Of a stretch of DNA of 64,000 bases, positions 1 to 36,401 are shown piece by piece; positions within the stretch are counted from its first letter, which is position 1, and each line of letters begins with the position of its first letter. The position numbers were made by a program, and so were the translations under genes. The DNA comes from Candidatus Moraniibacteriota bacterium (GTDB taxonomy: Bacteria; Patescibacteriota; Minisyncoccia; Moranbacterales; UBA1568): assembly GCA_049287005.1 (NCBI GenBank), contig JBAQEZ010000003.1:693143-757142 (forward strand). The letters are read 5' to 3'. Under the pieces are notes generated by a model. That model was not told the origin of the DNA. It did no database searches and saw nothing but the letters and a program-made list of their open reading frames with translations.

Positions 1-631
1 GGATAGCCGCGTTGAGCACCTGAGCTCCCTGGCTCCCGCCTAACACGAGAATGATCGGCTTCTCCAAAGAGAGACCGAACTGCTCTGCGAACCGTTCGGT
101 ATTGCCGAGCAGTAGTTCTTCACGAATAGGATTGCCGGTCAAAGCAGTCTTGTCAGCCGGAAAATAATTGTGCGCACTCGGATACGCAATCGCGATACGC
201 GACGCAAACCACGCCAGGAAACGATTGGCGCGTCCAGCCACCGCATCAGAATCATGAATGAGCACCGGGATACGATAGCACCAGGCTGCCAAAACGACCG
301 GCACCGAAGCCGATCCGCCTTTCGAAAAAACAGCGTCCGGCATAAAGACCAAAAGACGCCACAACGCCTGGATGAAACCGACGATGACCCTGAAGGGATC
401 GACGAGATTCTGCAACGAAAAATAGCGACGCCATTTTCCGGTCAAGACATACTGTGCCGGTATCCCTTCTTGTTCCATGGCATCGTTTTCAAAACTCCCT
501 CGCGAGCCGATGAAAAGCAATTCCACGTTTCCCGAAAACCTCTTGCGCAACGAACGGGCGACGGCCACGAGAGGAAACGTGTGCCCCCCTGAGATACCGC
601 CCGTCAGCACTATGCGAGGAATATCAGACAT
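1..631 (-). CDS. murG: MurG, undecaprenyl-PP-MurNAc-pentapeptide GlcNAc transferase (N-terminal ~210 aa; C-terminus lies outside the window)
   Basis: Reverse-strand translation from the ATG at 629-631 gives MSDIPRIVLTGGISGGHTFPLVAVARSL...KPIILVLGGSQGAQVLNAAI with no stop down to position 1. The GGxGGH N-terminal motif is typical of MurG. Confidence 0.8.
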   Translation of the reverse strand, partial: MSDIPRIVLTGGISGGHTFPLVAVARSLRKRFSGNVELLFIGSRGSFENDAMEQEGIPAQYVLTGKWRRYFSLQNLVDPFRVIVGFIQALWRLLVFMPDAVFSKGGSASVPVVLAAWCYRIPVLIHDSDAVAGRANRFLAWFASRIAIAYPSAHNYFPADKTALTGNPIREELLLGNTERFAEQFGLSLEKPIILVLGGSQGAQVLNAAI

Positions 632-2723: not shown

Positions 2724-4094
2724 TCATTTCATCTCACTCAACACGCTATCTCGATTGAGTACAAAACTCTTCTCTTCTCTGGATCCATCTGCCTTGATAA
2801 CCGTGACCGTGACCGGTACATCACTGAGTCCCGGCTGTTTTTGTATTTTCAGATCATACCACTGCCGCCTGAAGTCTTGCGGCAACGTATATTCGAACGT
2901 CACTGTCTTTTCCGTCAAAATCGGTACCTGTACCAATACGCCGAAATATTTCTTACCAAACGCTTCACCATACACAGGATCTTTGGCAGCAGACGTGACG
3001 TTACTCAGATAACTTCCACGCGGCACATACGCGCGAAGGAACACCTGATAATCTTTGGCGAACCAATCACGCGTCTTGGCAGTGTTCCGGTACGTCACGG
3101 CAAGCGTTGCCCGTGGCGCTGGAGCGGTAAGATCGATCGTATACGCATAGGAGCGCTTCATGAAATAATCGCTTTTGAAAGAATTGAGATTCGCGTCAAC
3201 CAGGAAGAGATAATCATTCTTCCAATGATCATCCACTGCGCCATCCCAGCCAGCAAGAGAAACTTGTGCCTGCAAAAGCTCGTCTTTGAAAAGCAATTGG
3301 ATATCTTTCTTGTGCAAATCATCCAGGACCGTTTTGAACAAATCATATTTTTTGGCCAGCGAGAGATCCTTCACGCGATGGAGAATCTCCAGCCCCAAGA
3401 TGCTCATGACCGATTTGCGTTCGCCGAAAGCGATATTCTGCTTGAGATACCCTTGTTCCACCTGATACTCGAGATCAAGAATGGCGTTATCCGCACCATA
3501 CGTTCCAGGGAAACCCTCAATGGCGACCGGACCGGTCACGCGGAGGAACGATGTCAGCACGTTCGTCGTCACCGCCACCACGCCGTCGAAATGCTCTGCC
3601 CCCTGTCCCATCTGATAGAACGTCTCTGCCCACTGCGCATTTTCCCCGAAATCCGGAGAATAGTTCGAATCACGCAGCTTCCACGAATCGATGCGGAGCG
3701 TCTCTTGCAGCGGATACGGCGGCTTGACGGTACTAGGAATACGTCCGTCGAAATTGCCGGTATCATGCACGGAGAAATCCACAATGCTGCCATCTCGTAC
3801 CTTCAAGATACCGAATGATCCGATGAAACCGCCGCCTGGGCGCAGTTCCAGATTATTCTGAAAAAGAATCAGGAAGGTTTTTTCCTTTCCGTCCGTGTGC
3901 AGTACCGCATCAGCCAGGGACATCACCGTTTCCAGATCAGTCTTCGTTTCTTGCGCCAGCGGCGCGAATCCGAGCAGCCGCTTGAGGCTCTCGAAGCCCT
4001 GGTTTTTTACTTCCCAATACACGAACCAGCCGGACAGAAAAAGAATCGATCCGATGATGAAGGTTGCCCAAAATTTTGTAGAATATTGTTTCAT
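2724..4094 (-). CDS. DUF4012-domain membrane-anchored protein (paralog 1), cell-surface polysaccharide associated
   Basis: N-terminal TM segment followed by the LILFQNNLELRPGGGFIGSFG motif characteristic of DUF4012. The ATG at 4092-4094 overlaps the stop of the upstream gene (TAATG). Confidence 0.7.
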   Translation of the reverse strand: MKQYSTKFWATFIIGSILFLSGWFVYWEVKNQGFESLKRLLGFAPLAQETKTDLETVMSLADAVLHTDGKEKTFLILFQNNLELRPGGGFIGSFGILKVRDGSIVDFSVHDTGNFDGRIPSTVKPPYPLQETLRIDSWKLRDSNYSPDFGENAQWAETFYQMGQGAEHFDGVVAVTTNVLTSFLRVTGPVAIEGFPGTYGADNAILDLEYQVEQGYLKQNIAFGERKSVMSILGLEILHRVKDLSLAKKYDLFKTVLDDLHKKDIQLLFKDELLQAQVSLAGWDGAVDDHWKNDYLFLVDANLNSFKSDYFMKRSYAYTIDLTAPAPRATLAVTYRNTAKTRDWFAKDYQVFLRAYVPRGSYLSNVTSAAKDPVYGEAFGKKYFGVLVQVPILTEKTVTFEYTLPQDFRRQWYDLKIQKQPGLSDVPVTVTVIKADGSREEKSFVLNRDSVLSEMK

Positions 4095-5197
4095 TACTTT
4101 CCTACATTGGCCAATAATTCATTCAAGCGACGCTTGTATGCCTCCTGTGTCGGTTCGCTCTGCTCTCGTTCTGCCGATAGAGCGGGTGATGCTGCTTCCG
4201 GAAAAAAAGCCGAAGAATCCTCTCGTGACTGTGCTAAAGACATGTCCGTTTCCTCCGACGCTGTCTCAAATTCGAAGGGCAAAGATGTTTCATCGGCCAC
4301 AGGCAGATCCGTCTCATCAGGCGCGGTAGGCAAGTTGGCCGGAGCCTGAGAATGTTTCACGGCGTGCTCTCCATAGATGCGAGGAGCCACAACGGTTTCT
4401 GGGAATTGACCTTCGAAAGGAAGTGTGTGCGGTTTTTCAGGAATAAATTTTTTCGGATCGATCCACAGCGCCGTATCACTGACACCGAATTCAGGATAAG
4501 CACGTCGCGCGAGAGCTTCATCAATATTGGACTTTTCTGACTCAGCAAAAACGTCCGAAAAAGAGATGAGTTTGCTTTTTATACCGATCAATTCAGGCAC
4601 TGCGCGCAAGAGAAAGAAAAAGAGCATTGTCACAGCAAGACCGGAGAAGAGAACCGTTCCGCCATATAACCATGGTGTTCGGATAGCATAAGAGACGATC
4701 GGTCCGTCGACCATACGCATATCGGCATCCGTTCTCACGTTATAATAGAAACTCGCGATCGCAAACATCGATTGCGCCGTCTGTAGCGCCAATCGCCTGA
4801 CCTTCTCCGGCGTATCTCCGTTCGCCCGAATGATGAGTACGCCGCTTCCGTCTTGTTTCGTTACGGATACCGTGTTATTCCATTGTACCTTGCGTTTATC
4901 CGGGGTATATCCGTCAAAATCATCGTCGATGAGATCATTCTCAGAAAGGACACGATTATAAAATGAGAGTGTCTGTGTCAGCTCTGCCATATTGGCTGCT
5001 ACCTCACCGGAGGTCTCTGTCGTACCGGATCTGGCAACGACCAGCACGATCACCTCCGCGTTATAGCCACGAAAATAATCCAGCCAAAACAATCCGGCTG
5101 CCAACGTGACAAAAACCAATGTCACCATGAAGGCGCGGCCGAAGGGAGAGGCGATAAATTTATTTCGTACGATATGAGGCATAGTGTTCTTTGACAT
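4094..5197 (-). CDS. Polysaccharide co-polymerase (Wzz/CpsC-like) membrane protein with an acidic C-terminal tail
   Basis: Two TM segments flank an extracytoplasmic domain, followed by an acidic Pro/Glu-rich tail. The start is uncertain (ATGs at 5197, 5182 and 5254) and overlaps the 3' end of the GT4 gene. Confidence 0.5.
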   Translation of the reverse strand: MSKNTMPHIVRNKFIASPFGRAFMVTLVFVTLAAGLFWLDYFRGYNAEVIVLVVARSGTTETSGEVAANMAELTQTLSFYNRVLSENDLIDDDFDGYTPDKRKVQWNNTVSVTKQDGSGVLIIRANGDTPEKVRRLALQTAQSMFAIASFYYNVRTDADMRMVDGPIVSYAIRTPWLYGGTVLFSGLAVTMLFFFLLRAVPELIGIKSKLISFSDVFAESEKSNIDEALARRAYPEFGVSDTALWIDPKKFIPEKPHTLPFEGQFPETVVAPRIYGEHAVKHSQAPANLPTAPDETDLPVADETSLPFEFETASEETDMSLAQSREDSSAFFPEAASPALSAEREQSEPTQEAYKRRLNELLANVGK

Positions 5198-6332
5198 TAC
5201 TGTACTGACGCAGGGCATCTTCATACACTTCGAGCGTCTTTTGCGCGATGGCATCCCAGCTATATTCCTGTTCTGCCCGCTCTTTGGCGATAGCGCCGAT
5301 CACGGCAGCCTCTTCTGGACGATTGATATAATAGGCCAGTTCTTTTTTCAAAGACTCCACATCCTTCACCGTGAAACTGATACCGCTGCCGTTCCGGATG
5401 GCTTCCATATTGGCAGGAATGTCACTCACGATGGGCAACAGGCCATATGCCATAGCTTCCAGCAGCGCCAGTGACAGTCCCTCCTCTTCCGATGGCTGAA
5501 CGAACAAGGACGCGTGAGAGAAAAAAACTGCCAGATCCTTACCGTGGAGCTCGCCGGTGAAGACGATGTTGCGAGCTCCTTCGCTCAAAACCCTGAGATA
5601 TTTCTCATACTCCTGCGTGTAGGCATGCGTACCCACGATGACCAGCTTGAAATTATTCGGCACTTTGTTCTGACGTTCCAATTCCCGGAAGGCCTTGATG
5701 AGATAATGTATCCCCTTGTGCTCGACCAGGCGGCTCACCGATAAGATATAGCGCTTCGGACGGATGCCCCACTGATTGAGCAGCGCGGCATCCGGCTCAT
5801 ATTCGACTTCCGCGCCGTTCGGAATAAAGGAAAAATTCTTCTTGTACGTCTTTTTCGCGTACGCCAAAAGCGTTTCGCTGATCACGATAGTCTTCTCCGG
5901 CACCACGCACGTGAGATATTCGGCGATACGCAGGCAAAGCCGCGCGAACCATCCCCATTTCTTATGAAAATAGTCCCTCGTATGGAACGTCGCCACGACG
6001 CGTATCCCCGGACGGAAAATCCGCGGCAGTATTGTAAAGACGCTGGGTCCGATAGAATGATAGTGTACGACATCGTAATTCTGAAACAGCATATGCGCCG
6101 TCGCAAACAACGCGTGGCTGATCGCTTCCAGGTGCTTGGTGCGGATGCTCGGTATATGGATCAGCTTCACGCCCGCATACTCAGTCAGGCTCGGATCGGT
6201 ATAATGCGAACGGACATAGACAAAAACCTCTTGGCCGGAAGCCGCCAAACGTGTCGCCAATTTCTCGACGTGCTTTTCAACGCCGCCGGAGAGACTGGGG
6301 ATTCCTTTTTGTCCGATGAAGGCGATCCTCAT
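5160..6332 (-). CDS. GT4 glycosyltransferase with DUF1972-type N-terminus (rhamnosyltransferase-like)
   Basis: MRIAFIGQKGIPSLSGGVEKHVEKL N-terminus plus a C-terminal EEGLSLALLEAMAYGLLPIVSD GT4 motif. Confidence 0.8.
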   Translation of the reverse strand: MRIAFIGQKGIPSLSGGVEKHVEKLATRLAASGQEVFVYVRSHYTDPSLTEYAGVKLIHIPSIRTKHLEAISHALFATAHMLFQNYDVVHYHSIGPSVFTILPRIFRPGIRVVATFHTRDYFHKKWGWFARLCLRIAEYLTCVVPEKTIVISETLLAYAKKTYKKNFSFIPNGAEVEYEPDAALLNQWGIRPKRYILSVSRLVEHKGIHYLIKAFRELERQNKVPNNFKLVIVGTHAYTQEYEKYLRVLSEGARNIVFTGELHGKDLAVFFSHASLFVQPSEEEGLSLALLEAMAYGLLPIVSDIPANMEAIRNGSGISFTVKDVESLKKELAYYINRPEEAAVIGAIAKERAEQEYSWDAIAQKTLEVYEDALRQYSNVKEHYASYRTK

Positions 6333-9846: not shown

Positions 9847-11037
9847 TTATTGCCTTTTTTTGCGCTCTCCCAGATGACGAAAAAGACTTTCGATCGCCTG
9901 CAGATACCGCGCCTCACCGAAACGTTCATACGTATCACGTTGAATGTTCCCCGCATCGAAGGATATTTTCCCAGAGAAAAAATCTGCTATATATTTTTTG
10001 AGCGCCTCTGTACTTTCTCCCAAATAGCCGTCGCGTCCATTCGTGATAATTTCCGGAAAAGCCCCGCTGCGCAGACCAAAGAATGGCTTGCCATAAGCAT
10101 GAGCTTCAAGAACGAGAAGACCGAATGTTTCAGGCAGCGGGGAAGCGCTGACCACACAGGCGGCTTGCCGCATGAGATCTGCGAGAGCTTCTTTGGATTG
10201 CTGTCCGACTACCGTCACATACCGACTTGATAACACGTGAAAATTATCCGCTCTCGTTCCCGCGAGAGTAAGCGGCAGCCGGAGGGTATCGAATATTGCT
10301 ACCAGATCATTGACGTGTTTTTCTTCTGATACGCTCCCGCAATAGAGTGCGAATGGCCTTTCGGTACCGCGCATCTCTCGCAGCGCCTGGCTCTCTCCGG
10401 CAATGAAATGCGGCACGACCGTGATTTTTGCTTCCGGCATGCCGGCGCGAACCAAAACGTTTTTGACATACACGCTCGGTGCGATATAGTGATCGATGTT
10501 TTTTTCATAAAATCCCATCCACTCTTCCCAATATTTTTTCAACACCAAAAGAATGCGTTTTCCCAAGCTATATTTTTTCACGAAAAGAAACTTGAAGTAG
10601 TGTTTTCCGACCTCCGGATAATACGCATCCTTATCGGGTGAAATCAGGTTATAATCGTGAACCGTCATCACGAGAGGCACCCGCAATTCCTTCAAGGGGC
10701 CGAGGATAGCCGGCGACAGCTGATGATACATATTGTGGATATGCACTATATCCGGCTGAAACGTTTCCAACAGCGCGGTCATTTTTTTTCTTGCCTCAAA
10801 CGACCAGAAGAGTCTGCCTATCCCCTTCAGTCGTTGCCATGCTGTCGAGTCATCATCATTATATCCGACATACCTCACAAAGTATTTTTCATATTCGCGC
10901 GAGACATTCCGTTTGTCGTCCATGGCAAAAACAGCCACCTTGTGGCCACTGTTTCGGAACAATGCGATGACGTCCAAAAAGTGCCGCTCAGCGCCACGGT
11001 GCAGGTAATAGTACTTGTTGACTTCGAGAATGTTCAT
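9847..11037 (-). CDS. GT4 glycosyltransferase
   Basis: MNILEVNKYYYLHRGAERHF N-terminus and C-terminal ETFGLLVLEAHAYGKP motif. The ORF-track start at 11070 is TTG; the ATG is at 11035-11037. Confidence 0.8.
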   Translation of the reverse strand: MNILEVNKYYYLHRGAERHFLDVIALFRNSGHKVAVFAMDDKRNVSREYEKYFVRYVGYNDDDSTAWQRLKGIGRLFWSFEARKKMTALLETFQPDIVHIHNMYHQLSPAILGPLKELRVPLVMTVHDYNLISPDKDAYYPEVGKHYFKFLFVKKYSLGKRILLVLKKYWEEWMGFYEKNIDHYIAPSVYVKNVLVRAGMPEAKITVVPHFIAGESQALREMRGTERPFALYCGSVSEEKHVNDLVAIFDTLRLPLTLAGTRADNFHVLSSRYVTVVGQQSKEALADLMRQAACVVSASPLPETFGLLVLEAHAYGKPFFGLRSGAFPEIITNGRDGYLGESTEALKKYIADFFSGKISFDAGNIQRDTYERFGEARYLQAIESLFRHLGERKKRQ

Positions 11038-11038
11038 A

Positions 11039-12514
11039 TTATACGTGTTCGAGAGAAGATTTCTCCGCAAGCGAGCAGAGGGTATGCATCAGCCCCAGCG
11101 TCAACCAAAAAAATACACCCGTCAGATTCGTCTCCAGGTACGGCTGCGCAAACAACACGATGCCCTGATAGACGAAGAGGGTCAGCAAAGCGACGCGGAG
11201 GGCGCCAAGAAACCTCGCTTCCGGGCGGGTGCGTAACACTCTCCAAACAAGCAAGCCAAGTGAAAAAGCAAGCGTCACAAATCCTATCATCCCCATCTGG
11301 ACGAGAAGCGCCAGCCAGGAATTATGAATATTCCTGATCTCAACGAAATCCCGATAGTCGCCTTGTTCGACGGGTATATGAGCACCGAAGCCTGATCCGA
11401 AAAAAGGATTGTGGGAAAGTTCTGAGAAGGCGCTCTGCCAGGTCGATCCGCGCCACGCGATACTTTCATCGTAAGCATTGCTCATGGAAGTGACGCGCAT
11501 GACAACCGTTTGCCCGACGTTTTGGAACGCATGCCCTGCCGTACTGGTCGGAAAAAGCAAAGAGACAAACAGCCAGAATGAGAGGATGAGCGTACCAAAA
11601 GCAAGGCCGATCACGATCATCTTTCTCGTTGTTTGACGCGTCGCTCGATTCAGCAGAAAGACCCACGCCACCCCTATGGCCACAGCCATGCCGATCCACA
11701 TATGGCGCATGAGCGATCCCAAGATACCGAACAGCCACAATGCAAGCACGATCCAGAGAAGGGCACGATATCTGTTCCTTGCCCAATATTCCGCCGTCAC
11801 GAACATCCCGAGGAAGGCCAGTGAAAAATAGAAGGCATGCGGGAAGGCAAGCAGACGGACGCCGGCAGTCGAAAGCGGCGTAAACTCTGTCCACAATCCT
11901 TCGCCCCGCACCACGCCAATGACAAGAAAGAGAATTCCGATGCTCGCTGCGGCCAGGAAATATTTCACTATCTTCCGCACATCAGATTCATTTTCCACAA
12001 GGAGCGGTACCGCAAAGAAGAGGGCTCCATAAAAAACATAATTTTTCCACGTACTGAAGGCCACGGCCAGATCCTGATTACCGAAGCCGATGAAACTCGC
12101 CACGCAGTAGAGAGATGCCACAAAAAAGAAAATGAGCAGCCATACATCCGCTGGCTTGAGAGTCAAACGGGTTTTCGCGTACAACATGCGTGCCAGCACT
12201 CCTCCGTAGACTCCGAGCAGCACAATATCGAGCGAATAAAGCTTGATGGCTTCCCGTCCGAATTGCAGCGCTTCCAGCGTAAAGAAGCGTTCGAACAAAA
12301 CGGTCAGGAAAATAATTCCATAGAGACCCGCCTTCGGATAGAGCAGAGAGACATAGAACATGGGAAGCATGACGATCAGCAGGTACCAAGGGATAAAACC
12401 CAAGAATATCCGTGCAAAACCGAGAATAAGAAAACATCCGATAATAAGCAATGCTGCTTTGTCATCGGCAGAAAACTTCTCTTTGATTTTCTGAAAAGCA
12501 AGAGGCGACTCCAT
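11039..12514 (-). CDS. O-antigen ligase / Wzy_C-family polytopic membrane protein (polysaccharide polymerase or ligase)
   Basis: About 12 TM segments. The IHNSWLALLVQMGMIGF motif is typical of the WaaL/Wzy_C family. Its stop lies 1 nt from the GT4 start codon. Confidence 0.7.
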   Translation of the reverse strand: MESPLAFQKIKEKFSADDKAALLIIGCFLILGFARIFLGFIPWYLLIVMLPMFYVSLLYPKAGLYGIIFLTVLFERFFTLEALQFGREAIKLYSLDIVLLGVYGGVLARMLYAKTRLTLKPADVWLLIFFFVASLYCVASFIGFGNQDLAVAFSTWKNYVFYGALFFAVPLLVENESDVRKIVKYFLAAASIGILFLVIGVVRGEGLWTEFTPLSTAGVRLLAFPHAFYFSLAFLGMFVTAEYWARNRYRALLWIVLALWLFGILGSLMRHMWIGMAVAIGVAWVFLLNRATRQTTRKMIVIGLAFGTLILSFWLFVSLLFPTSTAGHAFQNVGQTVVMRVTSMSNAYDESIAWRGSTWQSAFSELSHNPFFGSGFGAHIPVEQGDYRDFVEIRNIHNSWLALLVQMGMIGFVTLAFSLGLLVWRVLRTRPEARFLGALRVALLTLFVYQGIVLFAQPYLETNLTGVFFWLTLGLMHTLCSLAEKSSLEHV

Positions 12515-12567
12515 AAGTATGTATAGTATAGCGTATCTGCTCTGCTTATTCTAAAAAATATATCGAA

Positions 12568-12617
12568 GTATGGAAAAAATGCGACGCGGATTTTCCTGAC
12601 GTTCCAGGAAAATCCGC
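12568..12617 (-). terminator. Intrinsic terminator for the lipoprotein gene (13-bp perfect stem gcggattttcctg/caggaaaatccgc plus U-run)
   Basis: Minus-strand reading: gcgcggattttcctggaacgtcaggaaaatccgcgtcgcattttttcc. Confidence 0.7.
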
Positions 12618-12624
12618 GCTTGCT

Positions 12625-13518
12625 TCAGTATTTCACCTTCTGCTTTGCTCCGCAGAACATCCCCTGCCGGAGCGCCGCCTCGTACTGAGCCTTGATGACA
12701 CGGGCGATCATCCCCTGATACCCCCGCTTGAGTTCGGACTGCTCGTCCCAACCCTTGTCGGAGGCATTCAGAGCGACCAAGACGTCGGTCGCCGCACTCA
12801 TGGCCGTCGAGAACCAACTCAGGCTCACTCCGAACTGGCCGTTACCCGTGAGCTTCTCAGAAAAATTGAGTTCATTGTTTTCGCGTGCCACACTGCGCAC
12901 GTACTTTTCCGCAAGCGGCGTACGGATAGCATACGGAAGCGCCTTTGTTCGCACCGTGTTCCAATCCGAGAACACTGCCTGTAGACCTTTTATCCCGGCT
13001 ACAGGAACACCTTTCAGCTTACGCGTTTCGGTGCCACCGGATAGAACCACCTCCTTGCGATACATCACATCGGAAGCCAGCTTCTCCGGCGTCTTCACGA
13101 AAATTTCTTCTCCGTAAAGATTGAATAGCCGAGTAAAACGGGTGTTGGCGAATACTCCGACGATCGGCTCGTCGATATTTCCTTCGACGATGAACACCAA
13201 TCGCAAGGCACATTCTGCAAACCCAACATATATCGCTTGGGCTGCGTATTCCTTGCCGGTGTTTGTTCCGTATGCCACGGCATGATAACGGAGCCGGAGC
13301 GGGTGCATTTCCGAAAACAGTTCATCGGGAAAGCTTCCCAGAACCGCAACGAAATTGCCACTGCTGATTGCGGGAGTTTCTTGTACTCCGATAAAGCCGA
13401 TCGGATCGATCGTGACTTCTTGTTTGCCTGCCTCGGTCGTGACCGACATGGTGTTGCCACCAAGCGTCGCACAACCAGCAAGCAATAATACAAGCAACAA
13501 TGCTATAAGCGTGCGCAT
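12625..13518 (-). CDS. Lipoprotein of unknown function (LAGC lipobox)
   Basis: MRTLIALLLVLLLAGCAT signal peptide with lipobox; AGGAGG Shine-Dalgarno 7 nt upstream; no recognisable family. Confidence 0.6.
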   Translation of the reverse strand: MRTLIALLLVLLLAGCATLGGNTMSVTTEAGKQEVTIDPIGFIGVQETPAISSGNFVAVLGSFPDELFSEMHPLRLRYHAVAYGTNTGKEYAAQAIYVGFAECALRLVFIVEGNIDEPIVGVFANTRFTRLFNLYGEEIFVKTPEKLASDVMYRKEVVLSGGTETRKLKGVPVAGIKGLQAVFSDWNTVRTKALPYAIRTPLAEKYVRSVARENNELNFSEKLTGNGQFGVSLSWFSTAMSAATDVLVALNASDKGWDEQSELKRGYQGMIARVIKAQYEAALRQGMFCGAKQKVKY

Positions 13519-13575
13519 GGCAGCCTCCTATGGAAAATTGGTTAGGTACTGAATCTTTCGGAGCCATTTCTGGTA

Positions 13576-13615
13576 CCGCGGGCAGAATAATGAATGATCA
13601 CCATTCCGCCCGCGG
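13576..13615 (-). promoter_or_regulatory. Long inverted repeat (12 of 13 bp stem, 14-nt loop) inside the predicted 5' leader of the lipoprotein mRNA
   Basis: ccgcgggcagaat-N14-attccgcccgcgg, about 58 nt upstream of the ATG and downstream of the predicted promoter. Confidence 0.4.
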
Positions 13616-13645
13616 GGTCACAAATAGACACTCTGTAAACATCAA

Positions 13646-13674
13646 ATTATACTCCATTTTCATAGAAAAGTCAA
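13646..13674 (-). promoter_or_regulatory. Near-consensus sigma70 promoter (TTGACT-17-TATAAT) for the lipoprotein gene, abutting the P1 terminator hairpin
   Basis: Reverse strand: TTGACTtttctatgaaaatggagTATAATttgatg. Confidence 0.6.
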
Positions 13675-13725
13675 GAGCCCCTCATCATACAGACTGAGGG
13701 GCTCAGGTTTGGCGATGTTCCGCCG
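13673..13725 (-). repeat. Conserved 3' element copy 1: terminator hairpin (gagcccctca/tgaggggctc) plus an exact 27-mer shared with copy 2
   Basis: 27-mer gggctcaggtttggcgatgttccgccg at 13698-13725, 5 nt past the P1 stop codon. The hairpin is followed by a U-rich tract on the minus strand. Confidence 0.7.
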
Positions 13726-13730
13726 TTTGT

Positions 13731-14213
13731 CTATCGGATTGTACTGCGTAGCATGCCGGTACAGGTCATGGAGGCGCCGGGTCCACCGATGCCGCCAGCC
13801 TGTTTGTCGGGAATGACACTCACGCCGACAAGCGGACTTGCTGCGGATACCGCGGCCGCAGTGTTGAAGATCTTCGCCACCTGCGCCAATTCGCCATCAT
13901 CGACGAGCATGAAAGCATTGCCGCCTCGTCCCTTGAACTGGAAGTTGAAGGTGGCGCACGCCGGAAGCTTGTACGGACCCGGGCCAGCAAGAACCGACCT
14001 CGCCTGTACGACTTCACATGGCGGATGGTGATAGACTTCGAAGTTCACCACCTGTGCACCAGTCACTGAGACTGTGCCTGTGCCATCACCGTTCATGACA
14101 CAGGCGACCTGACCACCAGCCGGCAGAGACTCCGGCGGAGGAGGAGCAGCATAGCTGATTCCGATAACGCCGAACGATGCTACAATTGAAACGAACTTCA
14201 GTAGTGTGCGCAT
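13731..14213 (-). CDS. Small secreted protein P1 (signal peptide, Pro-rich N-terminus, 5 Cys), unknown function
   Basis: MRTLLKFVSIVASFGVIGISYA/APPPP signal peptide; TAGGAGG Shine-Dalgarno; own promoter region and terminator. Confidence 0.55.
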   Translation of the reverse strand: MRTLLKFVSIVASFGVIGISYAAPPPPESLPAGGQVACVMNGDGTGTVSVTGAQVVNFEVYHHPPCEVVQARSVLAGPGPYKLPACATFNFQFKGRGGNAFMLVDDGELAQVAKIFNTAAAVSAASPLVGVSVIPDKQAGGIGGPGASMTCTGMLRSTIR

Positions 14214-14240
14214 GATAACCTCCTAAGGTAAGCGCTAGAC

Positions 14241-14265
14241 GATGCCGTTGATACAATCTCAGGCG
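14241..14265 (-). repeat. Conserved 5'-leader motif copy 1 (mRNA sense cgcctgagattgtatcaacggcatc), 28 nt upstream of the P1 ATG
   Basis: About 24 of 28 positions identical to copy 2 at 14864-14889. Confidence 0.55.
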
Positions 14266-14274
14266 GCTATATAT

Positions 14275-14318
14275 TACAAAAAACCAGAGGGGGTACCATT
14301 TCACTTTTGAATGGTGCC
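14275..14318 (-). terminator. Second hairpin plus U7 tract (ggcaccatt/aatggtacc) between the P2 terminator and the P1 start; a backup terminator or insulator
   Basis: Minus strand: ggcaccattcaaaagtgaaatggtacccctctggttttttt. Confidence 0.4.
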
Positions 14319-14379
14319 TTAGATATATACCAAAACCTTTCTCCTGTCAAGTGTCGGAAAATATAAAGTATATAAAGTA

Positions 14380-14434
14380 AAGAGCCCACAAAATCCGTAG
14401 ATAATGTGGGCTCAGGTTTGGCGATGTTCCGCCG
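14380..14434 (-). repeat. Conserved 3' element copy 2: terminator hairpin (gagcccaca/tgtgggctc) plus the same exact 27-mer
   Basis: 27-mer at 14408-14434, 8 nt past the P2 stop. Both copies also share the prefix aagagccc. Confidence 0.7.
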
Positions 14435-14442
14435 ATGATGGG

Positions 14443-14832
14443 CTAGCTTTTGGAGTATTTCACCTCCAATGCGCAGCCTTCCTTGGATTTCTTGCACTCC
14501 TGCGTGACGCCGGTCATCTTGAAGGCGTTGCCGGACGGAGTGACGAGGAGCCATTTGCCGGAAGCGTCCTTGAGCTGGAAGCGGGTACCCTGTTCCGATA
14601 CCTGCGACAGTGCCCCGCTGCCATCTTGCATCGGGATGCTGACAATGCCTCCCTTCTTCTGGAAGTGCACCAGCGTGACGGCCGGGAACTCGCTCGTGAC
14701 CGTAATGGTCACGTTGTCACCCGACTTGACTGCCTGAACAGTGCCACCGGCAACCGCGAAGGTTTCGGCGCTGGCCAGACCAGATGCTGCTGCCAGCAAG
14801 ACTGCTACGATACTATACGCAAAGAACTTCAT
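14443..14832 (-). CDS. Small secreted protein P2 (signal peptide, 2 Cys near the C-terminus), unknown function
   Basis: MKFFAYSIVAVLLAAASGLASA/ETF signal peptide; GGAGAA Shine-Dalgarno. Confidence 0.55.
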   Translation of the reverse strand: MKFFAYSIVAVLLAAASGLASAETFAVAGGTVQAVKSGDNVTITVTSEFPAVTLVHFQKKGGIVSIPMQDGSGALSQVSEQGTRFQLKDASGKWLLVTPSGNAFKMTGVTQECKKSKEGCALEVKYSKS

Positions 14833-14863
14833 GCTTTTCTCCTTCCGAGAAAAAACTTACGAC

Positions 14864-14889
14864 GGATGCCTTTGATGTTATCTCAGGCG
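14864..14889 (-). repeat. Conserved 5'-leader motif copy 2 (mRNA sense cgcctgagataacatcaaaggcatcc), 32 nt upstream of the P2 ATG
   Basis: Shares ATCTCAGGCG and flanking positions with copy 1. Confidence 0.55.
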
Positions 14890-14943
14890 CTTTAAGGTAC
14901 TGCCAAAGAAACCTGTGTCACCACACTCTTTCGATGACTTTAC

Positions 14944-14972
14944 ATCTTACATCAAAAATCGTTTTTTGTCAA
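14944..14972 (-). promoter_or_regulatory. Sigma70-like promoter for P2 (TTGACA-17-TAAGAT)
   Basis: Reverse strand: TTGACAaaaaacgatttttgatgTAAGATgtaaag. Confidence 0.5.
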
Positions 14973-15044
14973 CCCCGTTAGAAAACGCTACGCCTCTGGC
15001 GTGACTTCAGTCGTTTACAGCGACTTTTCCTAACGGGGTCAATA
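14967..15044. promoter_or_regulatory. Inverted repeat (10-bp perfect core accccgttag/ctaacggggt, 48-nt spacer) whose left arm overlaps the -35 box of the P2 promoter
   Basis: Both arms contain TTGAC. Candidate operator or DNA-looping site. Confidence 0.35.
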
Positions 15045-15057
15045 GCTAAAAATGGCT

Positions 15058-15105
15058 TATGTAAAAGATGAAAGGGACGTCGCGCGTAAGCACAAACGTC
15101 CCTTT
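15058..15105 (-). terminator. Intrinsic terminator for the LysM-protein gene (10-bp perfect stem aaagggacgt/acgtcccttt plus U-tract)
   Basis: Minus strand: aaagggacgtttgtgcttacgcgcgacgtccctttcatctttt. Confidence 0.6.
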
Positions 15106-15209
15106 GAAAGTATTTCGAAGCAAGTTCTTTCCGTATGCCAGGCCGCCATCGTCAATGCGATAGCCTTTTTATACACCTTGGATCAGAGGAAAGCTCTTGC
15201 CAAACCGCC

Positions 15210-16952
15210 TTATTTAGGAGGCGTGGCTGCTTCTGCCGGGATGAACTCGACTTGAGCTTCCCGACTCTTTGCATCATTTTCACGGACCTTCTTACCGAGC
15301 TCGACACGAACGAACGCGCCGACGGTTGTCAGGTCACGAGCGGAGAGCGGCTTATTGAGATCACTCACGCCAATCGGCAGAGTGACTTGCGGGCCGAACA
15401 TCAGCCACTCGTTGTAACGGATCTCATACGTACCACGGAGCCAATCTTGCTTGTCCCAATTGGTACGCGCCCATCCGCCGATCACTCGCTGACGCCACGC
15501 GTTGTCCTGCGAGAGTTTCGTCTCGTAGAACCCGGAGAGGCTCATCGAACCGCGATCTTGCACCGGCTGTGCTGTCCAGGTCGAGCTGACTGTCTGTCCA
15601 TAGGACTTCCAGTATTCACCGATCACTCCAGCCAGGTCGCCCTCGCTATTGAGCTTTTCGGTATAGCCGACGTAGGCGCCGACCTTTTGACCCTTTTGCG
15701 TGAAAGAGTAGCCGGAATCTGGATTTTCGCCCCACGACTTGTCGCGGAGCCACCTGAGTTTCAGATCAAGCGTCGAGAGACGGTTCCGATCATTCACCCA
15801 GTTGCGCTGCGCACCGACCTGCACTCCGACACCATATTCTTGGTTACGGAACGCGGTACCAATGGATTCGCCGCTGCCATACATCCCGTAGAGACCGGGG
15901 CCAGCTTGCCATGCGCCGTCTTTCCAGACATAGCAGATGGCTTCACCGTACACCCAATTCCCCTCGTACATACGGTTGCCATACAATCCGGCACCCGCCT
16001 GCACTTCGCAGCGTGGCTTGCCAGCGGCTTCTTCCGGCGTTACATGGAACGGAGGGACCATGACTTCCGGTTCTTCCGGTGGCGGGACAGGTTGCGGTTC
16101 CACTGGTGGTTCCTCAACCTTTGGCGGCGGTGTTACTATTGGTGGTGGTTGCGGTGTGCGTGGCGCGACTTCCGTGAGGTTGTCACACTTGTCCAGAATA
16201 ACGACATTCCTGCCGCTCTGCAATTGACACACAAGTCCTGCTTCCGGCTGTTTCCAGACGGCTGTCAGATTCTTGAGCACACTTCCCCTGCCGAAAGCCA
16301 TCCAAGGAAACTTCGTACCGCGAGAAAATTCCTCACGAACGCATTTCCCCTGGTCACGGAGACTGAGGTATTCATCAATCTCGGCCACTGTATAGCCTTG
16401 CCCCGATAAGATCTTGCGATCCTTTTCGGGAGTACGGTACTTGGCATACGGAGCGACTCCCAATCTTGCGATCGGAAGCGACCCGTCGGCTAGACGCCGC
16501 ACCGGCGTGTGAACAATGGTTTTGGCCTCGACACCGAGAGGAACGATGAGTTCCTGTCCGACTCGGACGAGATTACAGTTCTTGAGACTATTCGCCTCGC
16601 ATACTGCTTTCGCTTCCTTGCCGAAAACTCCTTCAAGCGTATCGCCACTGCTGACGACATACTTGCTGATCTCCGGCTTAGAGGGAGCTGCTTCAGCTAT
16701 TTCAGCCTTCTCAGTAGCGACCTTTTCGCTCTCAAGGGATGGCCCTGACACTGGCGATGAGGCCGGTGCCGCTGAAGCGAGTTGCGTAATAGTGGGAATC
16801 GGTGGCGCGAGCGGAGTCGCCGCTGGGTCCTTTTCCTGGGACGAGTAGTCACCAAGAAGAAGAATGCTACCGATAATAAGGAAGAGAACAACCATGGCAA
16901 TAATATACTGCCACCATGGCCGTCTCTTCTTCCATGCTTTAACCTTGGTCAT
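15210..16952 (-). CDS. Membrane-anchored LysM-domain protein with a Pro-rich linker and a C-terminal W/Y/G-rich beta-type domain
   Basis: The ATG at 16950-16952 has a GGAGA Shine-Dalgarno; the ORF-track start at 16985 is a GTG without one. Domain order: TM, LysM-like segment (YVVSSGDTLEGV...VRVGQELIVP), PPPIVTPPPKVEEPPVEPQPVPPPEEPE linker, then an aromatic-rich domain of about 270 aa. Confidence 0.6.
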   Translation of the reverse strand: MTKVKAWKKRRPWWQYIIAMVVLFLIIGSILLLGDYSSQEKDPAATPLAPPIPTITQLASAAPASSPVSGPSLESEKVATEKAEIAEAAPSKPEISKYVVSSGDTLEGVFGKEAKAVCEANSLKNCNLVRVGQELIVPLGVEAKTIVHTPVRRLADGSLPIARLGVAPYAKYRTPEKDRKILSGQGYTVAEIDEYLSLRDQGKCVREEFSRGTKFPWMAFGRGSVLKNLTAVWKQPEAGLVCQLQSGRNVVILDKCDNLTEVAPRTPQPPPIVTPPPKVEEPPVEPQPVPPPEEPEVMVPPFHVTPEEAAGKPRCEVQAGAGLYGNRMYEGNWVYGEAICYVWKDGAWQAGPGLYGMYGSGESIGTAFRNQEYGVGVQVGAQRNWVNDRNRLSTLDLKLRWLRDKSWGENPDSGYSFTQKGQKVGAYVGYTEKLNSEGDLAGVIGEYWKSYGQTVSSTWTAQPVQDRGSMSLSGFYETKLSQDNAWRQRVIGGWARTNWDKQDWLRGTYEIRYNEWLMFGPQVTLPIGVSDLNKPLSARDLTTVGAFVRVELGKKVRENDAKSREAQVEFIPAEAATPPK

Positions 16953-17163
16953 GGTGTTCTCCGGTTGAGTTTTCGAATGGGTCACCGCAAAGCGACCCGG
17001 ATTGAGTTTGCTTCACGATTTCCTCCTACAGCTTGGTTGAAAACCGGCCCTACGAAAGAGCCTCTTGAAAACGTACTTATTGTTAATGATCTTGATGATC
17101 CGAATGGGTCATCTCAACCGCTCTCGACTACAACTATCTCAAGAGCGGGATGACATATCCCAT

Positions 17164-17802
17164 TTATGCTGCGAAAAAACTGGATCGGAATTCTTCTCGT
17201 ACCAAACGCCATGTGAAAATCAAGAAAAATCCCAATATCAGTCCGGCTAGCACGATCAAAGAAAGTTCTGAAGCGGACGGACTTCCCTCGATAATCGGAC
17301 CGGATAGCAACCGCACGCTGACCTTGTCGCCGCCGCTTCCGAACAGCGCGCCGCTCTTTTCATTCAAAACAACAGCTACCGCCTGCGCGATCTTGGACAC
17401 TTCACGTTCGCTCGTCCCAGACAGAGAGACATTGATAAAACCGAGCTCCGGATTTTTTTTCACCTCCAGCATCTTGGACCACTTCTCGAGACGATCTTTC
17501 TTGTCACGCGGCAAAAAATTAACATCCACGCCTCCCGTCTCGACGACTGCACTGATGAAGCTTTCGCTATAGAGGATTTCGCCAAGCACCCGACTCATAT
17601 ATTCAGCCGAACGCGTCGCCGTGTAATAATCCTGCCCCTCTTGCGTGGACGAAATCATGAAATCAGCACTCGCCTTGTATGGCGCCTGCAAAGTAAAAGC
17701 GCCCACGATGCCGATCACTGCGATCACGATGCCGAAAACCAGGCCATGAGACACGCTTTCTTTGACAATACTCCAAAATCCCTTTTTGCGAGCAAAATTC
17801 AT
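17164..17802 (-). CDS. Polysaccharide co-polymerase (Wzz/CpsC-like) protein, paralog 2
   Basis: N-terminal and C-terminal TM segments flank an extracytoplasmic domain. The ATG at 17800-17802 (MNFARKKGFW) is preferred over the far upstream ORF-track start. Confidence 0.55.
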   Translation of the reverse strand: MNFARKKGFWSIVKESVSHGLVFGIVIAVIGIVGAFTLQAPYKASADFMISSTQEGQDYYTATRSAEYMSRVLGEILYSESFISAVVETGGVDVNFLPRDKKDRLEKWSKMLEVKKNPELGFINVSLSGTSEREVSKIAQAVAVVLNEKSGALFGSGGDKVSVRLLSGPIIEGSPSASELSLIVLAGLILGFFLIFTWRLVREEFRSSFFAA

Positions 17803-17910
17803 AGATACGCTATTACAAATAGAAAGAGAGTTGCAGCAACCTTCAAACATGCCACTCTACCAAAAAATGAGGAAAATGTCAACCCCAGTCAATACCCTGG
17901 CAGCGAAAGA

Positions 17911-34695: not shown

Positions 34696-36384
34696 CTACG
34701 CTTTTTCCACAGAAGAAGGCTGATTGAATGTCCCAACGTGAATTTCCGGATTTTTGAGCGGCAGTTCGATGATGAAGCGCGAGCCCTTGTCCGGTCCGTC
34801 GGATTCGGCCCAGATCTTGCCGCCATGGGCTTCGATGAAGTTCTTGCCGACATACAGACCCAAGCCCGCCCCGGAAACCACCATCTTGGTCGTTTCCTTG
34901 CTCCGGAGAAATTTCTGGAACAGATTCTTCTTATCCTCCGGATGGATGCCGATACCCGTGTCGGAAACGATGATCCGTGCCACACTTGAAGTTCCTTCGA
35001 GCGATACCGTCACGCTCCCCTCTTTGGTATATTTCAGAGCGTTGTCGATCAGGTTGGACAGTACTTCTTTGATCTTGTTCGGATCGATAATCAATTGAGG
35101 GAGCGGGGTCTTCGACAACTTCATCTCCAGGAGCAGGTTCTTATCTTTTGCCGTGGGCCGAAACATATCCACCAGCTCCGCGATAAGAGGCTCCAATTGC
35201 GTCGATGCGAAACCGTACTGGATACGTCCTGCTTCGATGCGCGAGACGTTGAGGAGGTCTTCTACCAATTGTACTAGCCGACTATTCACCGTATACACTT
35301 TGTTCAGAATATCCTGAATGGCAGCAGGCACTTTGCCATACGACCCCTCGAGCAACAGCGAAATATATCCCTTGATGGCGGTAAGCGGTGTCCGAAGCTG
35401 GTGCGATGCGATAGAAATAAACTCCGATTTGGTCGCGTCGAGTTCTTTCAGCCGCTGATTGGCGATAGACAACGCATCCGAAATCTTCTGTAGCTCTTCT
35501 TTGCGCTCTACTTCTTTGCGCACAGATCGTATGAGAATCCAACCTGCCACAAGAGTCATGATGAGAGTTAGTCCCACTAAAATGTAATTCGTCACGCTCG
35601 TGACAACCGTAAGCATCGAACCGATCAGAACAAATTGTGCCACCACCAACGTCTGTGCCCCAATCAGCTTGATATCAAACGCCTTATAACGAACGATCAG
35701 ATATGCTAAAAATCCAGCAAATATGGGGGCGCTAAACAAACCATACTGAAGGATATCCCATTTCTCAGTAATACTTGCTATGATATTTGTCCCCGAAAAG
35801 GAAAAAAGGAAAAGAATGGCACCGAGAGAAAATATCAATACCCGCTTCCTATCCTCCCTAGACGCGCTAAATATTTTTTTTAATAAATACCCGAGCAACC
35901 AAAGCGAAAAGAGCGATTCAAGAAAATAAAAATAATAAATAGCCGGTCCCTGCTGAGCTTCACAAGAGGCCATGGTAAAACCTTCTATATTAAAAGATGT
36001 AGGAATCAAAAATACAAACGGAATCAATAACAAAAGAATAAACAACTTCAATCGCCAAGAAGTATCTTTTCGCTCCAAAAAAACATAGGAAAAATATAAT
36101 ACACCGATTGAGGTAAGCAATTCAAATAAATTTATTATTGACCAAAAAAACATTATAAACCTACCGTCAACACTTACCCATAAAATAAGGTCCGAGATGA
36201 CCCAAAAGGAAAAAATCACAGCAATAAAAAAAAGTATTTTGCTTGCCAAAAAATTCTTATTTTTAAAGAACACGAGTGCGCCTACAAGAAAAACTGCTAA
36301 CGCCGTTGGAATATGGGAGTAGTAGAGAAATTTCGGCAAATCAACTACACAAGTTTCAACATGAGAAATAAAATCAAAGTCCAT
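34696..36384 (-). CDS. Sensor histidine kinase with a multi-pass N-terminal membrane domain
   Basis: H-box SIASHQLRTPL plus N, G1 and G2 boxes (NLIDNALKYT, SDTGIGI, GAGLGL). The ORF-track start at 36417 is TTG; the ATG is at 36382-36384. Confidence 0.8.
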   Translation of the reverse strand: MDFDFISHVETCVVDLPKFLYYSHIPTALAVFLVGALVFFKNKNFLASKILFFIAVIFSFWVISDLILWVSVDGRFIMFFWSIINLFELLTSIGVLYFSYVFLERKDTSWRLKLFILLLLIPFVFLIPTSFNIEGFTMASCEAQQGPAIYYFYFLESLFSLWLLGYLLKKIFSASREDRKRVLIFSLGAILFLFSFSGTNIIASITEKWDILQYGLFSAPIFAGFLAYLIVRYKAFDIKLIGAQTLVVAQFVLIGSMLTVVTSVTNYILVGLTLIMTLVAGWILIRSVRKEVERKEELQKISDALSIANQRLKELDATKSEFISIASHQLRTPLTAIKGYISLLLEGSYGKVPAAIQDILNKVYTVNSRLVQLVEDLLNVSRIEAGRIQYGFASTQLEPLIAELVDMFRPTAKDKNLLLEMKLSKTPLPQLIIDPNKIKEVLSNLIDNALKYTKEGSVTVSLEGTSSVARIIVSDTGIGIHPEDKKNLFQKFLRSKETTKMVVSGAGLGLYVGKNFIEAHGGKIWAESDGPDKGSRFIIELPLKNPEIHVGTFNQPSSVEKA

Positions 36385-36401
36385 AAATTTTTTATTTTTG
36401 A

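Follow-up and report, generated by a model that had tools for sequence, protein, structure and literature searches.

A block of genes in a 64-kb window (by which we mean the whole stretch of 64,000 nucleotides analysed here) from a member of Candidatus Moraniibacteriota (hereafter Moranbacteria) encodes four exported envelope proteins amid surface-glycan genes: a large LysM protein with, in its C-terminal half, a predicted 12-stranded, amphipathic, outer-membrane-type beta-barrel, two small secreted proteins that we call P1 and P2, and a lipoprotein. We propose that this block is a vertically inherited, lineage-specific envelope module of Moranbacteria, which belong to the CPR (Candidate Phyla Radiation), and that it would produce a wall-tethered barrel/lipoprotein complex alongside Wzy-type glycan genes; we give this interpretation an even chance of being right. 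How CPR bacteria, or Patescibacteria, build their envelopes and make contact with other cells is largely unknown, and evolutionary scenarios count a complete loss of the outer membrane in this group. A conserved and apparently highly expressed protein that joins a wall anchor to an outer-membrane-type barrel, together with its partners, therefore offers a concrete and testable handle on the CPR envelope. The original prediction for this DNA, made from the sequence alone, had suggested a small-genome organism and secreted proteins beside cell-surface glycan genes. Both suggestions were borne out, the former by a protein 100% identical to the LysM protein that is annotated in a Candidatus Moraniibacteriota metagenome-assembled genome (MAG).

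The four genes had been described as lying back to back on the minus strand, each product with its own signal peptide or anchor. Their open reading frames (ORFs) were confirmed (Table 1), and export signals are legible in all four sequences; for the LysM gene, an alternative and longer ORF starting with GTG extends to 16985. Read 5' to 3' on the minus strand, a gene for a polysaccharide co-polymerase (PCP)-like protein comes first, followed by the LysM, P2, P1 and lipoprotein genes and then by the genes for a Wzy_C membrane protein and a GT4 glycosyltransferase. The spacers from the PCP-like gene to the Wzy_C gene measure, in this order, 211, 377, 229, 212 and 110 nt; for a small genome these are long spacers. 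About 20% of the block is non-coding and its spacers (110-377 nt) show strong conservation, so that it cannot be called compact as had been claimed.

Nor does it behave like an island. We followed 16 clusters of LysM-protein homologues and 39 clusters of lipoprotein homologues to the contigs that carry them, which gave a set of related loci (designated here by L numbers) whose Frr proteins share 68-83% identity and which therefore represent different species or genera. In all 15 of the 15 loci that span the block, the genes occur in the same order and orientation, frr-rseP-PCP-LysM-(P2 or P1)-lipoprotein-Wzy-GT4, and an ADP-forming acetyl-CoA synthetase gene on the other strand is usually next after GT4. 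The flanks are thus constant, with frr and rseP on one side and Wzy_C, GT4 and the acetyl-CoA synthetase on the other; no mobility genes are present, and the GC content of the block (0.52-0.53, vs about 0.50 for the whole window) is ordinary. The core of the block, comprising the PCP-like gene, the barrel, the lipoprotein domain and a P2-like protein, also recurs in a distant lineage of 40% GC (L029). Conserved synteny, which the original prediction had named among the observations that would speak against it, is largely what we found, both within the clade and beyond it. The strict synteny and the recurrence of the core in a distant 40%-GC lineage lead us to regard the block as a vertically inherited core envelope module and not as an acquired island.

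The central protein of this module combines a wall-binding domain with the predicted barrel. In the AlphaFold2 model its N-terminus forms a transmembrane (TM) helix at residues 13-37, in place of which many homologues have a cleavable signal peptide (ANA/EV, with cleavage at the slash). For the Pfam scans we accepted matches at E<=0.1 for the window protein and at E<=0.01 for 89 members of its family. The LysM domain of the window protein matches PF01476 over profile positions 1-43 of 43 at 20.1 bits, vs a cutoff of 20.9 (E 6e-4), and is modelled as a strand (96-99), a helix (106-120) and a second strand (134-137). LysM was recognised in 60 of the 89 family members, with a best E of 8.7e-17, and the domain is very probably a true one. 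The earlier statement that none of the four proteins matches a known family thus stands for the lipoprotein, P1 and P2, and gives way for the large protein, which has this borderline LysM match and a recognisable predicted fold. Between the LysM domain and the barrel the model places a confident alpha/beta domain and a disordered, Pro-rich linker.

Support for the barrel comes from the model and from the pattern of residues along its strands. Although the AlphaFold2 model was built on an alignment of 16 sequences and its predicted template modelling score (pTM) for the whole chain is 0.46, the barrel region reaches block means of about 73-95 in the predicted local distance difference test (pLDDT) over 12 long strands. 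When the model was compared with the PDB using Foldseek, the top 50 matches were all integral outer-membrane barrels. The best of these are the 12-stranded beta-domains of autotransporters, led by Hbp (3aeh, E 7e-7) and followed by AIDA-I, EspP, BrkA and NalP, with E values from 7e-7 to 3e-4 and TM-scores relative to the target of 0.44-0.57; the polysaccharide porins PgaA and AlgE are also among the matches. We then looked for the signature of a membrane barrel at the predicted strands in the sequences of 20 diverse family members. Each strand has 3-5 alternate, outward-facing hydrophobic positions in a central run (for example V-A-A-L, V-V-V-A, L-L-L-W or L-F-P-V-L-I), while polar or charged residues or glycine occupy the inward face. 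Hydropathy averages +0.65 outward and -1.03 inward, and the barrel is 13% Gly and 14% aromatic. As predicted, then, the C-terminal half has what is generally expected of an integral barrel, namely an even number of strands (12), a dyad pattern and structural neighbours drawn only from outer-membrane barrels. In an exhaustive profile search its family came to 116 clusters (at 50% identity), mostly of proteins of 450-650 amino acids (aa) with the barrel at the C-terminus. A homology search with a profile of the barrel only returned 3 proteins, a search of PDB sequences with the barrel profile gave no match, and the Pfam and NCBIfam scans detected no enzymatic domain.

The partners of the barrel protein are indicated by a natural fusion. 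The lipoprotein has a signal sequence ending in MRTLIALLLVLLLAG/C, with a lipobox (LLAG/C) that fits the bacterial lipoprotein pattern [LVI][ASTG][GA]C and whose Cys, read from the sequences, is nearly invariant in 38 homologues; Cys103 and Cys289 are conserved as well. Its family comprises 39 clusters with 57-77% identity, and every named match is from Moranbacteria. Its AlphaFold2 model is moderately confident (pTM 0.70) and finds no fold match in the PDB (best Foldseek E 0.26), nor did its profile match any PDB sequence. P0141, a distant member of the barrel family of 812 aa, begins with a lipoprotein signal and carries a domain of the lipoprotein family ahead of its barrel (31% identity to the window lipoprotein, BLASTP 1e-20, hhalign 98.9%). 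On its contig, the 40%-GC locus L029, a PCP-like gene lies immediately upstream (32% identity, E 7e-32), and directly downstream is the gene of a secreted protein that matches the P2 profile at its N-terminus (hhalign 94%, E 1e-7, with the signal peptide contributing to the match). The fusion, and a neighbourhood conserved at such a distance, are good sequence-based evidence that the PCP-like protein, the barrel, the lipoprotein domain and the P-type protein are functionally linked and work together.

In all loci the PCP-like gene is the immediate upstream neighbour of the barrel gene. Its product, in which two TM helices can be read from the sequence, matches the CpsC family (NCBIfam TIGR01006) with an E of 7.7e-6 over profile positions 28-197 of 226, at 25.5 bits vs a cutoff of 296, and Pfam GNVR with an E of 0.016; PF02706 was not reported, and a search of PDB sequences with the PCP profile gave no match. 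In having two TM helices, a CpsC-family match and a locus with Wzy_C and GT4 genes, it resembles the CpsC/CapA-type PCP-2b proteins of Gram-positive bacteria; it differs from them in that its score is far below the cutoff, no CpsD-type kinase gene is adjacent and it is paired with a barrel protein.

From these components a mechanism can be sketched. A CpsC/Wzz-like inner-membrane protein would act with a Sec-exported protein, putatively held to peptidoglycan by its LysM domain, whose Pro-rich linker would lead to the predicted 12-stranded amphipathic barrel of outer-membrane type. A partner lipoprotein would complete the set, along with P2 and/or P1, the small secreted subunits of which the variable slot encodes one or two. 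The PCP-like and barrel genes would be expressed as one operon with a structured leader, and the small genes and the lipoprotein gene as separate units of high output, in each of which a near-consensus promoter is combined with a 5' stem-loop, a GGAGG and a strong terminator, much as for ompA and lpp. Most likely, the proteins would come together as a wall-tethered barrel/lipoprotein complex in the envelope's outermost layer, where the complex might anchor, and/or be a conduit for, the surface glycan that the flanking Wzy-type polymerase or ligase and GT4 enzymes make.

Architectures of this kind are known elsewhere, and what may be new here is that a wall-binding domain is predicted to be combined with an outer-membrane-type barrel, and this with a lipoprotein partner, in a phylum where it is unexpected. 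The closest parallel in layout is with the inverse autotransporters (type Ve, including intimin, invasin, YeeJ and FdeC), which have a signal sequence, a LysM domain and a 12-stranded barrel, the LysM binding peptidoglycan in the periplasm (PMC5595812). The Moranbacteria protein shares the same N-to-C order, the predicted 12 strands and a putatively monomeric barrel. Unlike the inverse autotransporters, neither the window protein nor the 89 family members match PF11924, and there is no Ig-like (Big) or lectin passenger, the barrel being followed by a tail of about 30 aa (up to about 60 in homologues, with repeated GQLEFVP). It further differs in having an extra alpha/beta domain and the Pro-rich linker between LysM and barrel, in its dedicated lipoprotein, PCP-like and small secreted partners, and in belonging to a phylum without a known outer membrane or beta-barrel assembly machinery (BAM). 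Classical autotransporters (type Va: Hbp, EspP, AIDA-I, BrkA and NalP) are the best structural matches to the model, which likewise has 12 strands in a C-terminal barrel with a preceding linker. In contrast to these, the Moranbacteria protein has no PF03797 match, carries a wall-binding module at the N-terminus and not a secreted passenger, and shows no confidently predicted pore-filling helix. OmpM (SLH plus porin barrel) and OmpA similarly have, in a single polypeptide, an integral beta-barrel, a linker and a domain that binds peptidoglycan; both are abundant structural envelope proteins that tether the outer membrane to peptidoglycan. The differences are that the wall-binding domain in Moranbacteria is LysM, not SLH or OmpA_C, and that the number of strands is another. 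Among diderm Terrabacteria, where CPR have been placed, OmpM is the typical tether, and CPR are reported to have lost porins, SLH domains and outer-membrane tethers (10.1101/2021.05.31.446380).

The glycan genes around the block bear on a further possibility, that the PCP-like protein, the barrel, the lipoprotein and a small protein make up a dedicated translocon for export or anchoring of polysaccharide. In Gram-negative capsule sets (GfcABCD/YjbEFGH and composite OPX/beta-barrel translocons), a small protein, a lipoprotein and a barrel accompany PCP and Wzy genes, and the Moranbacteria set could by analogy act in the same way. The barrel gene always adjoins a CpsC-like PCP gene, distant L029 included, Wzy_C and GT4 genes are immediately downstream, the two polysaccharide porins are among the structural matches, and the window is rich in glycan genes (five GT4, an rmlA-like gene, rmlD and two DUF4012). 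Against this, the YjbH, YjbF, Caps_synth_GfcC, Poly_export and SLBB Pfam domains are absent from the four proteins and from the 89 barrel-family members, a 12-stranded pore is narrow compared with polysaccharide porins of 16-18 strands, neither a tyrosine kinase nor a flippase adjoins the PCP gene, and the available part of L029 contains no Wzy gene. We consider such a translocon a minority possibility, and the best placed of the alternatives to the lineage-specific envelope module. The neighbouring Wzy_C protein could, on our assumption, be a PglL-like O-oligosaccharyltransferase rather than a polymerase; the Ala/Pro/Ser-rich stretches in the LysM protein (residues ~40-90) and in P1 are, we presume, of the kind that PglL-like enzymes glycosylate.

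Several points weigh against the wall-tethered barrel complex itself. CPR are regarded as monoderm (PMC8871954; 10.1101/2021.05.31.446380) and have a type IV secretion system of the monoderm kind (10.1101/2025.01.22.634366), and since porins and tethers are also described as lost there is no obvious membrane to hold the barrel. The 64-kb window includes no outer-membrane biogenesis genes, and a BamA/Omp85 gene was found neither in it nor in the short related loci. At the sequence level the protein matches no outer-membrane-protein Pfam family or PDB chain; the barrel was predicted from only 16 sequences; and a C-terminal aromatic beta-signal is lacking, the last strand (...GAFVRVEL) being followed by a tail of 29 residues. 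The roles given to the lipoprotein, P1 and P2 are guesses, as neither a fold nor a family could be recognised for these proteins. The link to glycan comes from gene neighbourhood alone, and the L029 contig ends before any Wzy gene could appear. We are open to three outcomes for the barrel: a misleading prediction, a hitherto unseen outer lipid layer, or insertion elsewhere, for instance in a host cell. That it is a genuine membrane barrel, tethered by LysM to the cell's own wall, with an unseen outer lipid layer or with BAM-independent insertion in another membrane such as that of a host, seems to us possible and on balance doubtful. If it were true, it would imply either an unseen outer lipid layer, which could be a relic or reinvention of the diderm envelope, or BAM-independent insertion elsewhere, and the barrel family with its partners and private RNA leaders would give Patescibacteria their first described system of outer-membrane proteins. 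Should the barrel be mispredicted, the finding shrinks to a tidy, ordinary, lineage-specific cluster of wall proteins.

In that last case the four products would be ordinary monoderm wall proteins, the C-terminal domain not being embedded in a membrane, either because the model misleads or because the barrel is soluble or buried in the wall; they would be abundant proteins, for example LysM-anchored remodelling or surface-layer-like proteins. The shallow alignment, the low whole-chain pTM, the modest mean outward hydrophobicity, the description of the phylum as monoderm (PMC8871954; 10.1101/2025.01.22.634366) and the fact that LysM proteins are common in walls are all consistent with this. However, model confidence is high specifically in the 12 strands, and the structural neighbours are exclusively integral outer-membrane barrels. 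Strands of 11-19 residues around a wide lumen need a polar inside, and the polar inside observed together with a hydrophobic belt is the signature of a membrane barrel; the absence of an enzymatic domain likewise counts against this explanation. We therefore hold this explanation to be unlikely.

The slot between the LysM and lipoprotein genes is the variable part of an otherwise constant block. P1 and P2 both have AxA-type signal peptides (...ISYA/APPPP and ...GLASA/ETF, respectively) and genes with a GGAGG ribosome-binding site; P2 has a conserved C-terminal CxxxxxxC and no Pfam or PDB relative. Orthologues of P2 (52-68% identity) occupy the slot in 15 loci, whereas orthologues of P1 (35-44% identity) are its sole occupants in three (L005, L023 and L028), and only the window has both. 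Carriers of P1 and P2 are interleaved within subclades. A direct BLASTP comparison of P1 with P2 was insignificant; a profile-profile alignment, which includes the signal peptides, gave an hhalign probability of 85.6% (E 5.6e-6), on the strength of which the two are probable distant paralogues. Between L011 (carrying P2) and L023 (carrying P1) the flanks are 79% identical and the terminator-plus-lipoprotein segment 92%, a mosaic that indicates recombination within the locus. The variability of the slot could reflect either loss from an ancestral tandem pair or exchange of cassettes between conserved flanks.

Traces of duplication are visible in the window itself. An exact 27-nt direct repeat (13699-13725 and 14408-14434) lies behind the P1 and P2 stop codons and is part of a duplicated module of small hairpin, terminator and promoter, and the P1 and P2 leaders have in common a 25-nt motif (14241-14265 and 14865-14889, 84% identical). 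We considered whether the 27-nt repeat might be an integron attC-like or other recombination site and rejected this. Since the module occurs once per locus in relatives and the promoter of the P2-side copy has decayed, the repeat is best seen as the scar left by addition of a second cassette.

This slot is the only feature that points to interaction with a host. A host-contact module, in which the barrel inserts spontaneously in a host membrane or LysM grips host peptidoglycan while P1 and P2 serve as exposed, diversifying contact subunits, would suit the membership of the organism in CPR, many of which are epibionts, the patchy P2, P1 or double occupancy within subclades and the L011/L023 mosaic, and a barrel inserted in a host would explain why the cell has no outer membrane of its own; yet the block is strictly syntenic amid housekeeping and wall-synthesis genes, the lipoprotein is too highly conserved for a typical interface protein, there are no adhesin-like passenger or repeat domains and the lineage has no known host, so that we regard host contact as improbable, to much the same degree as the wall-protein explanation.

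The lineage-specific envelope module is also marked by its transcription signals, apparently those expected of structural envelope proteins made in abundance, with strong promoters, ribosome-binding sites and terminators and with 5' stem-loops. Each gene had been credited with a recognisable promoter, and all four with monocistronic expression. Two of the promoters are present exactly as described, TTGACT-17-TATAAT before the lipoprotein gene (13674-13646) and TTGACA-17-TAAGAT before P2 (14972-14944), and both are near consensus; the candidate for P1 is weak, and for the LysM gene none was found. Accordingly P2, P1 and the lipoprotein gene can be accepted as three separate transcription units, whereas the LysM gene is probably not monocistronic. 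In the 16 loci scanned, the spacer between the PCP-like and LysM genes has no sigma-70-like promoter (best 7-9/12), and in the window no canonical terminator follows the PCP-like gene. A shared transcript is therefore probable, with the PCP-like gene as the first gene of this operon and the LysM gene behind it. A promoter-like site upstream of the PCP-like gene recurs in L005, L015 and L022 (10-11/12) and not in other loci.

The claim of a strong intrinsic terminator behind each gene proved correct. In all four units a GC-rich hairpin is followed by a U-tract, as is characteristic of Rho-independent terminators, and the hairpins fold at -21.8 (LysM), -28.7 (P2), -28.4 (P1) and -26.5 (lipoprotein) kcal/mol, with z-scores of -4.5 to -7 and with 0 of 200 shuffled sequences folding as well in any of the four. 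Simple pattern counts are not above chance (13 promoter-like sites vs 10.2 +/- 3.2 in shuffled sequence, and 16 terminator-like sites vs 13.3 +/- 3.9), and for this reason the weight of the promoter and terminator evidence lies on conservation among orthologous loci. TTGAC(T/A)-17-TATA(A/C)T (11-12/12) precedes the lipoprotein gene in every locus examined. TTGACA-17-TA..AT is found at the same place upstream of the small gene, be it of P1 or P2 type, in most of them, an exception being L006, where the best match is at a different site. As a second small gene is absent from every other locus, the P1 promoter candidate is confined to the window. In most loci examined the LysM, small-gene and lipoprotein units end in hairpins of -19 to -35 kcal/mol with T-runs, and the lipoprotein terminator is strong in 20 of 22 loci scanned, with weak hairpins only in L017 and L021.

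The P1 terminator and the lipoprotein promoter are directly joined, as the original prediction had noticed: the terminator stem ends at 13675 and the TTGACT begins at 13674. The U-tract of this terminator, UUGACUUUU, contains the next -35 box, so that the U-tract of one gene's terminator doubles as the -35 region of the next promoter. The same overlap (stem CTC, then directly TTGACTTTT) recurs in at least nine loci (L002, L004, L005, L006, L007, L012, L013, L019 and L022), and provides a natural case of a terminator U-tract serving as the -35 box of the following gene. In E. coli, lpp and ompA are monocistronic genes for major envelope proteins with strong promoters, mRNA-stabilising 5' stem-loops and strong intrinsic terminators. 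The Moranbacteria units differ from these in that a terminator forms the upstream edge of the next promoter and in that the leaders and the 3' element described below are lineage-specific RNAs. An inverted repeat, CCCCGTTAGGAAAA ... TTTTCTAACGGGG, was also read from the sequence ahead of P2. Its arms of 13-14 nt enclose about 40 nt and it ends exactly at the -35 box of the small gene; the same arrangement is seen in L011:6150-6235, where TTGAC is present in both arms. This repeat may be an operator or an insulator hairpin.

Three conserved RNA structures accompany the genes. The leader of the lipoprotein gene forms a hairpin with 21 consensus pairs, 11 of them with compensatory changes among 12 sequences. 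As it is not followed by a U-tract, we take it to be a stabilising or regulatory structure and not a terminator. At the same site, unrelated sequence folds in L017 and L020, and L012, L013 and L019 have a different hairpin, as judged by eye. The leader of the LysM-barrel gene begins directly after the PCP stop codon with hairpin A (17148-17118), in which 7 of 7 pairs show compensatory changes. It is followed by the motif TTGAGATGACCCATTCGGATCATC (17117-17094), which in most relatives is a near-invariant 19-mer, GTCGAGATGTCCGATTCGA. An upstream ORF (MKQTQSG...), running from GTG at 17016 to TAA at 16939, overlaps the main start; its beginning, (G/A)TG-AAG-CAR-CTC, is conserved and it has a GGAGG of its own. 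The second hairpin of this leader (GGGTCGC/GTGACCC) is followed by a T-run in several relatives. The leader may be an attenuation or translational-coupling device. The 19-mer was also considered as a sigma-70 promoter or an obvious extracytoplasmic function (ECF) promoter, and this was dropped as there are no acceptable hexamers.

The third structure is an element that follows the LysM stop codon directly; it is about 145 nt long and comprises the motif AGGT..TAAAAAGG, a GTATC...GATAC stem, GGCC and the LysM terminator. An alignment of 15 loci gave a consensus fold, and the covariance model built from it finds one match per locus (examples are L002:11503-11695, L005:5960-6136 and L010:836-1028). 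In L010 the gene ahead of the element codes for a different secreted protein; this copy has sharp borders and shares 100% identity with that of L015. It may be a small RNA derived from the 3' untranslated region or a stability module. Other roles were tried and set aside: an independently transcribed small RNA, there being no conserved -35/-10 ahead of it; an antisense RNA of P2, where a 15-nt complementarity to P2 codons 2-6 in the window is not conserved in relatives and is equalled by other chance pairings in the region; and a riboswitch of the P gene, because the P promoter lies downstream of the element's terminator. Rfam 15 covariance models run over 12300-17400 gave only a chance match to mir-73 (E 0.24). 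These leader hairpins, upstream ORF and 3' element, all absent from Rfam, could reveal how envelope proteins are regulated in minimal genomes, just as the block adds three orphan protein families with clear genomic linkage.

Table 1. Genes, transcription signals and RNA structures of the envelope block, with positions in the window (residue numbers for the protein layout).
Feature	Position	Strand	Details
PCP-like gene	17164..17850	-	Wzz/CpsC-like polysaccharide co-polymerase; 228 aa; two TM helices
LysM/beta-barrel gene	15210..16952	-	580 aa; ATG start, GGAG six bases upstream
LysM-barrel protein layout	residues ~96-137; 175-262; 269-304; 314-551		LysM; alpha/beta domain; Pro-rich linker; 12 predicted strands, then a short tail (AlphaFold2)
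P2 gene	14443..14832	-	129 aa; small secreted protein
P1 gene	13731..14213	-	160 aa; small secreted protein
Lipoprotein gene	12625..13518	-	297 aa; lipobox LLAGC
Wzy_C gene	11039-12514	-	O-antigen polymerase/ligase-type membrane protein; Pfam and synteny; constant downstream neighbour
GT4 glycosyltransferase gene	9847-11070	-	Pfam and synteny; constant downstream neighbour
Promoter-like site of PCP-like gene	17854..17882	-	TTGACA-17-TAGAGT; TG before the -10 box; 10/12
LysM-barrel leader	16953..17163	-	Hairpin A, TTGAGATGACCCATTCGGATCATC, short upstream ORF, second hairpin
3' RNA element	15062..15209	-	~145 nt; directly after LysM stop; ends in terminator (stem 15105-15071)
Inverted repeat	14973..15038	-	CCCCGTTAGGAAAA ... 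TTTTCTAACGGGG; abuts P2 -35 box
P2 promoter	14944..14972	-	TTGACA-17-TAAGAT
P2 3' module	14372..14434	-	Hairpin GGCGGAACATCGCC; terminator stem 14413-14382; decayed copy of lipoprotein promoter (TTTACT, -10 lost)
Candidate P1 promoter	14322..14350	-	Weak; TTGACA-17-TATATC; 10/12; without the conserved final T
P1 3' module overlapping lipoprotein promoter	13646..13725	-	Small hairpin; terminator stem 13704-13675; -35 13674-13669; -10 TATAAT 13651-13646
Lipoprotein leader hairpin	13574..13615	-	-33.4 kcal/mol; z -7.3
Lipoprotein terminator	12574..12619	-	16-bp stem, then T-tract; -26.5 kcal/mol

Among the related loci, a few departures from the common arrangement were seen. In one MAG the segment L010:515-2606 is rearranged: the LysM-barrel gene is absent at the site, the protein encoded ahead of the 3' RNA element is an unrelated secreted one of 108 aa, and a pyruvate kinase gene is inserted before P2. 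In L004, the stretch that separates the lipoprotein terminator from the Wzy gene contains a 108-nt tandem repeat (13337-13613; 2.6 copies, 93% matches). L012 (CAZOKB010000001.1) is labelled 'uncultured Bdellovibrionales bacterium', yet it has the full Moranbacteria-type gene order with proteins 47-71% identical to those of the window, and is probably a mislabelled or contaminated MAG; a run of N falls within its P2 gene.

The rest of the window has the content of a typical CPR core genome with wall and glycan genes, among them RodA, PBP2, MreBC, MurJ and MltG/YceG, and taken as a whole the 64 kb is an envelope/glycan supercluster. The two DUF4012 proteins are encoded at 2724-4094 and 52400-54577, both on the minus strand, and the ORFs at 4094-5254 and 40824-42203 are without a family. 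The segment from 36001 to 38000 has a GC content of 0.387, vs about 0.50 for the window, and may be acquired DNA; it holds an ORF of 433 aa (36402-37703) that has no Pfam family, adjoins an EamA transporter gene and lies downstream of a histidine kinase/response regulator pair.

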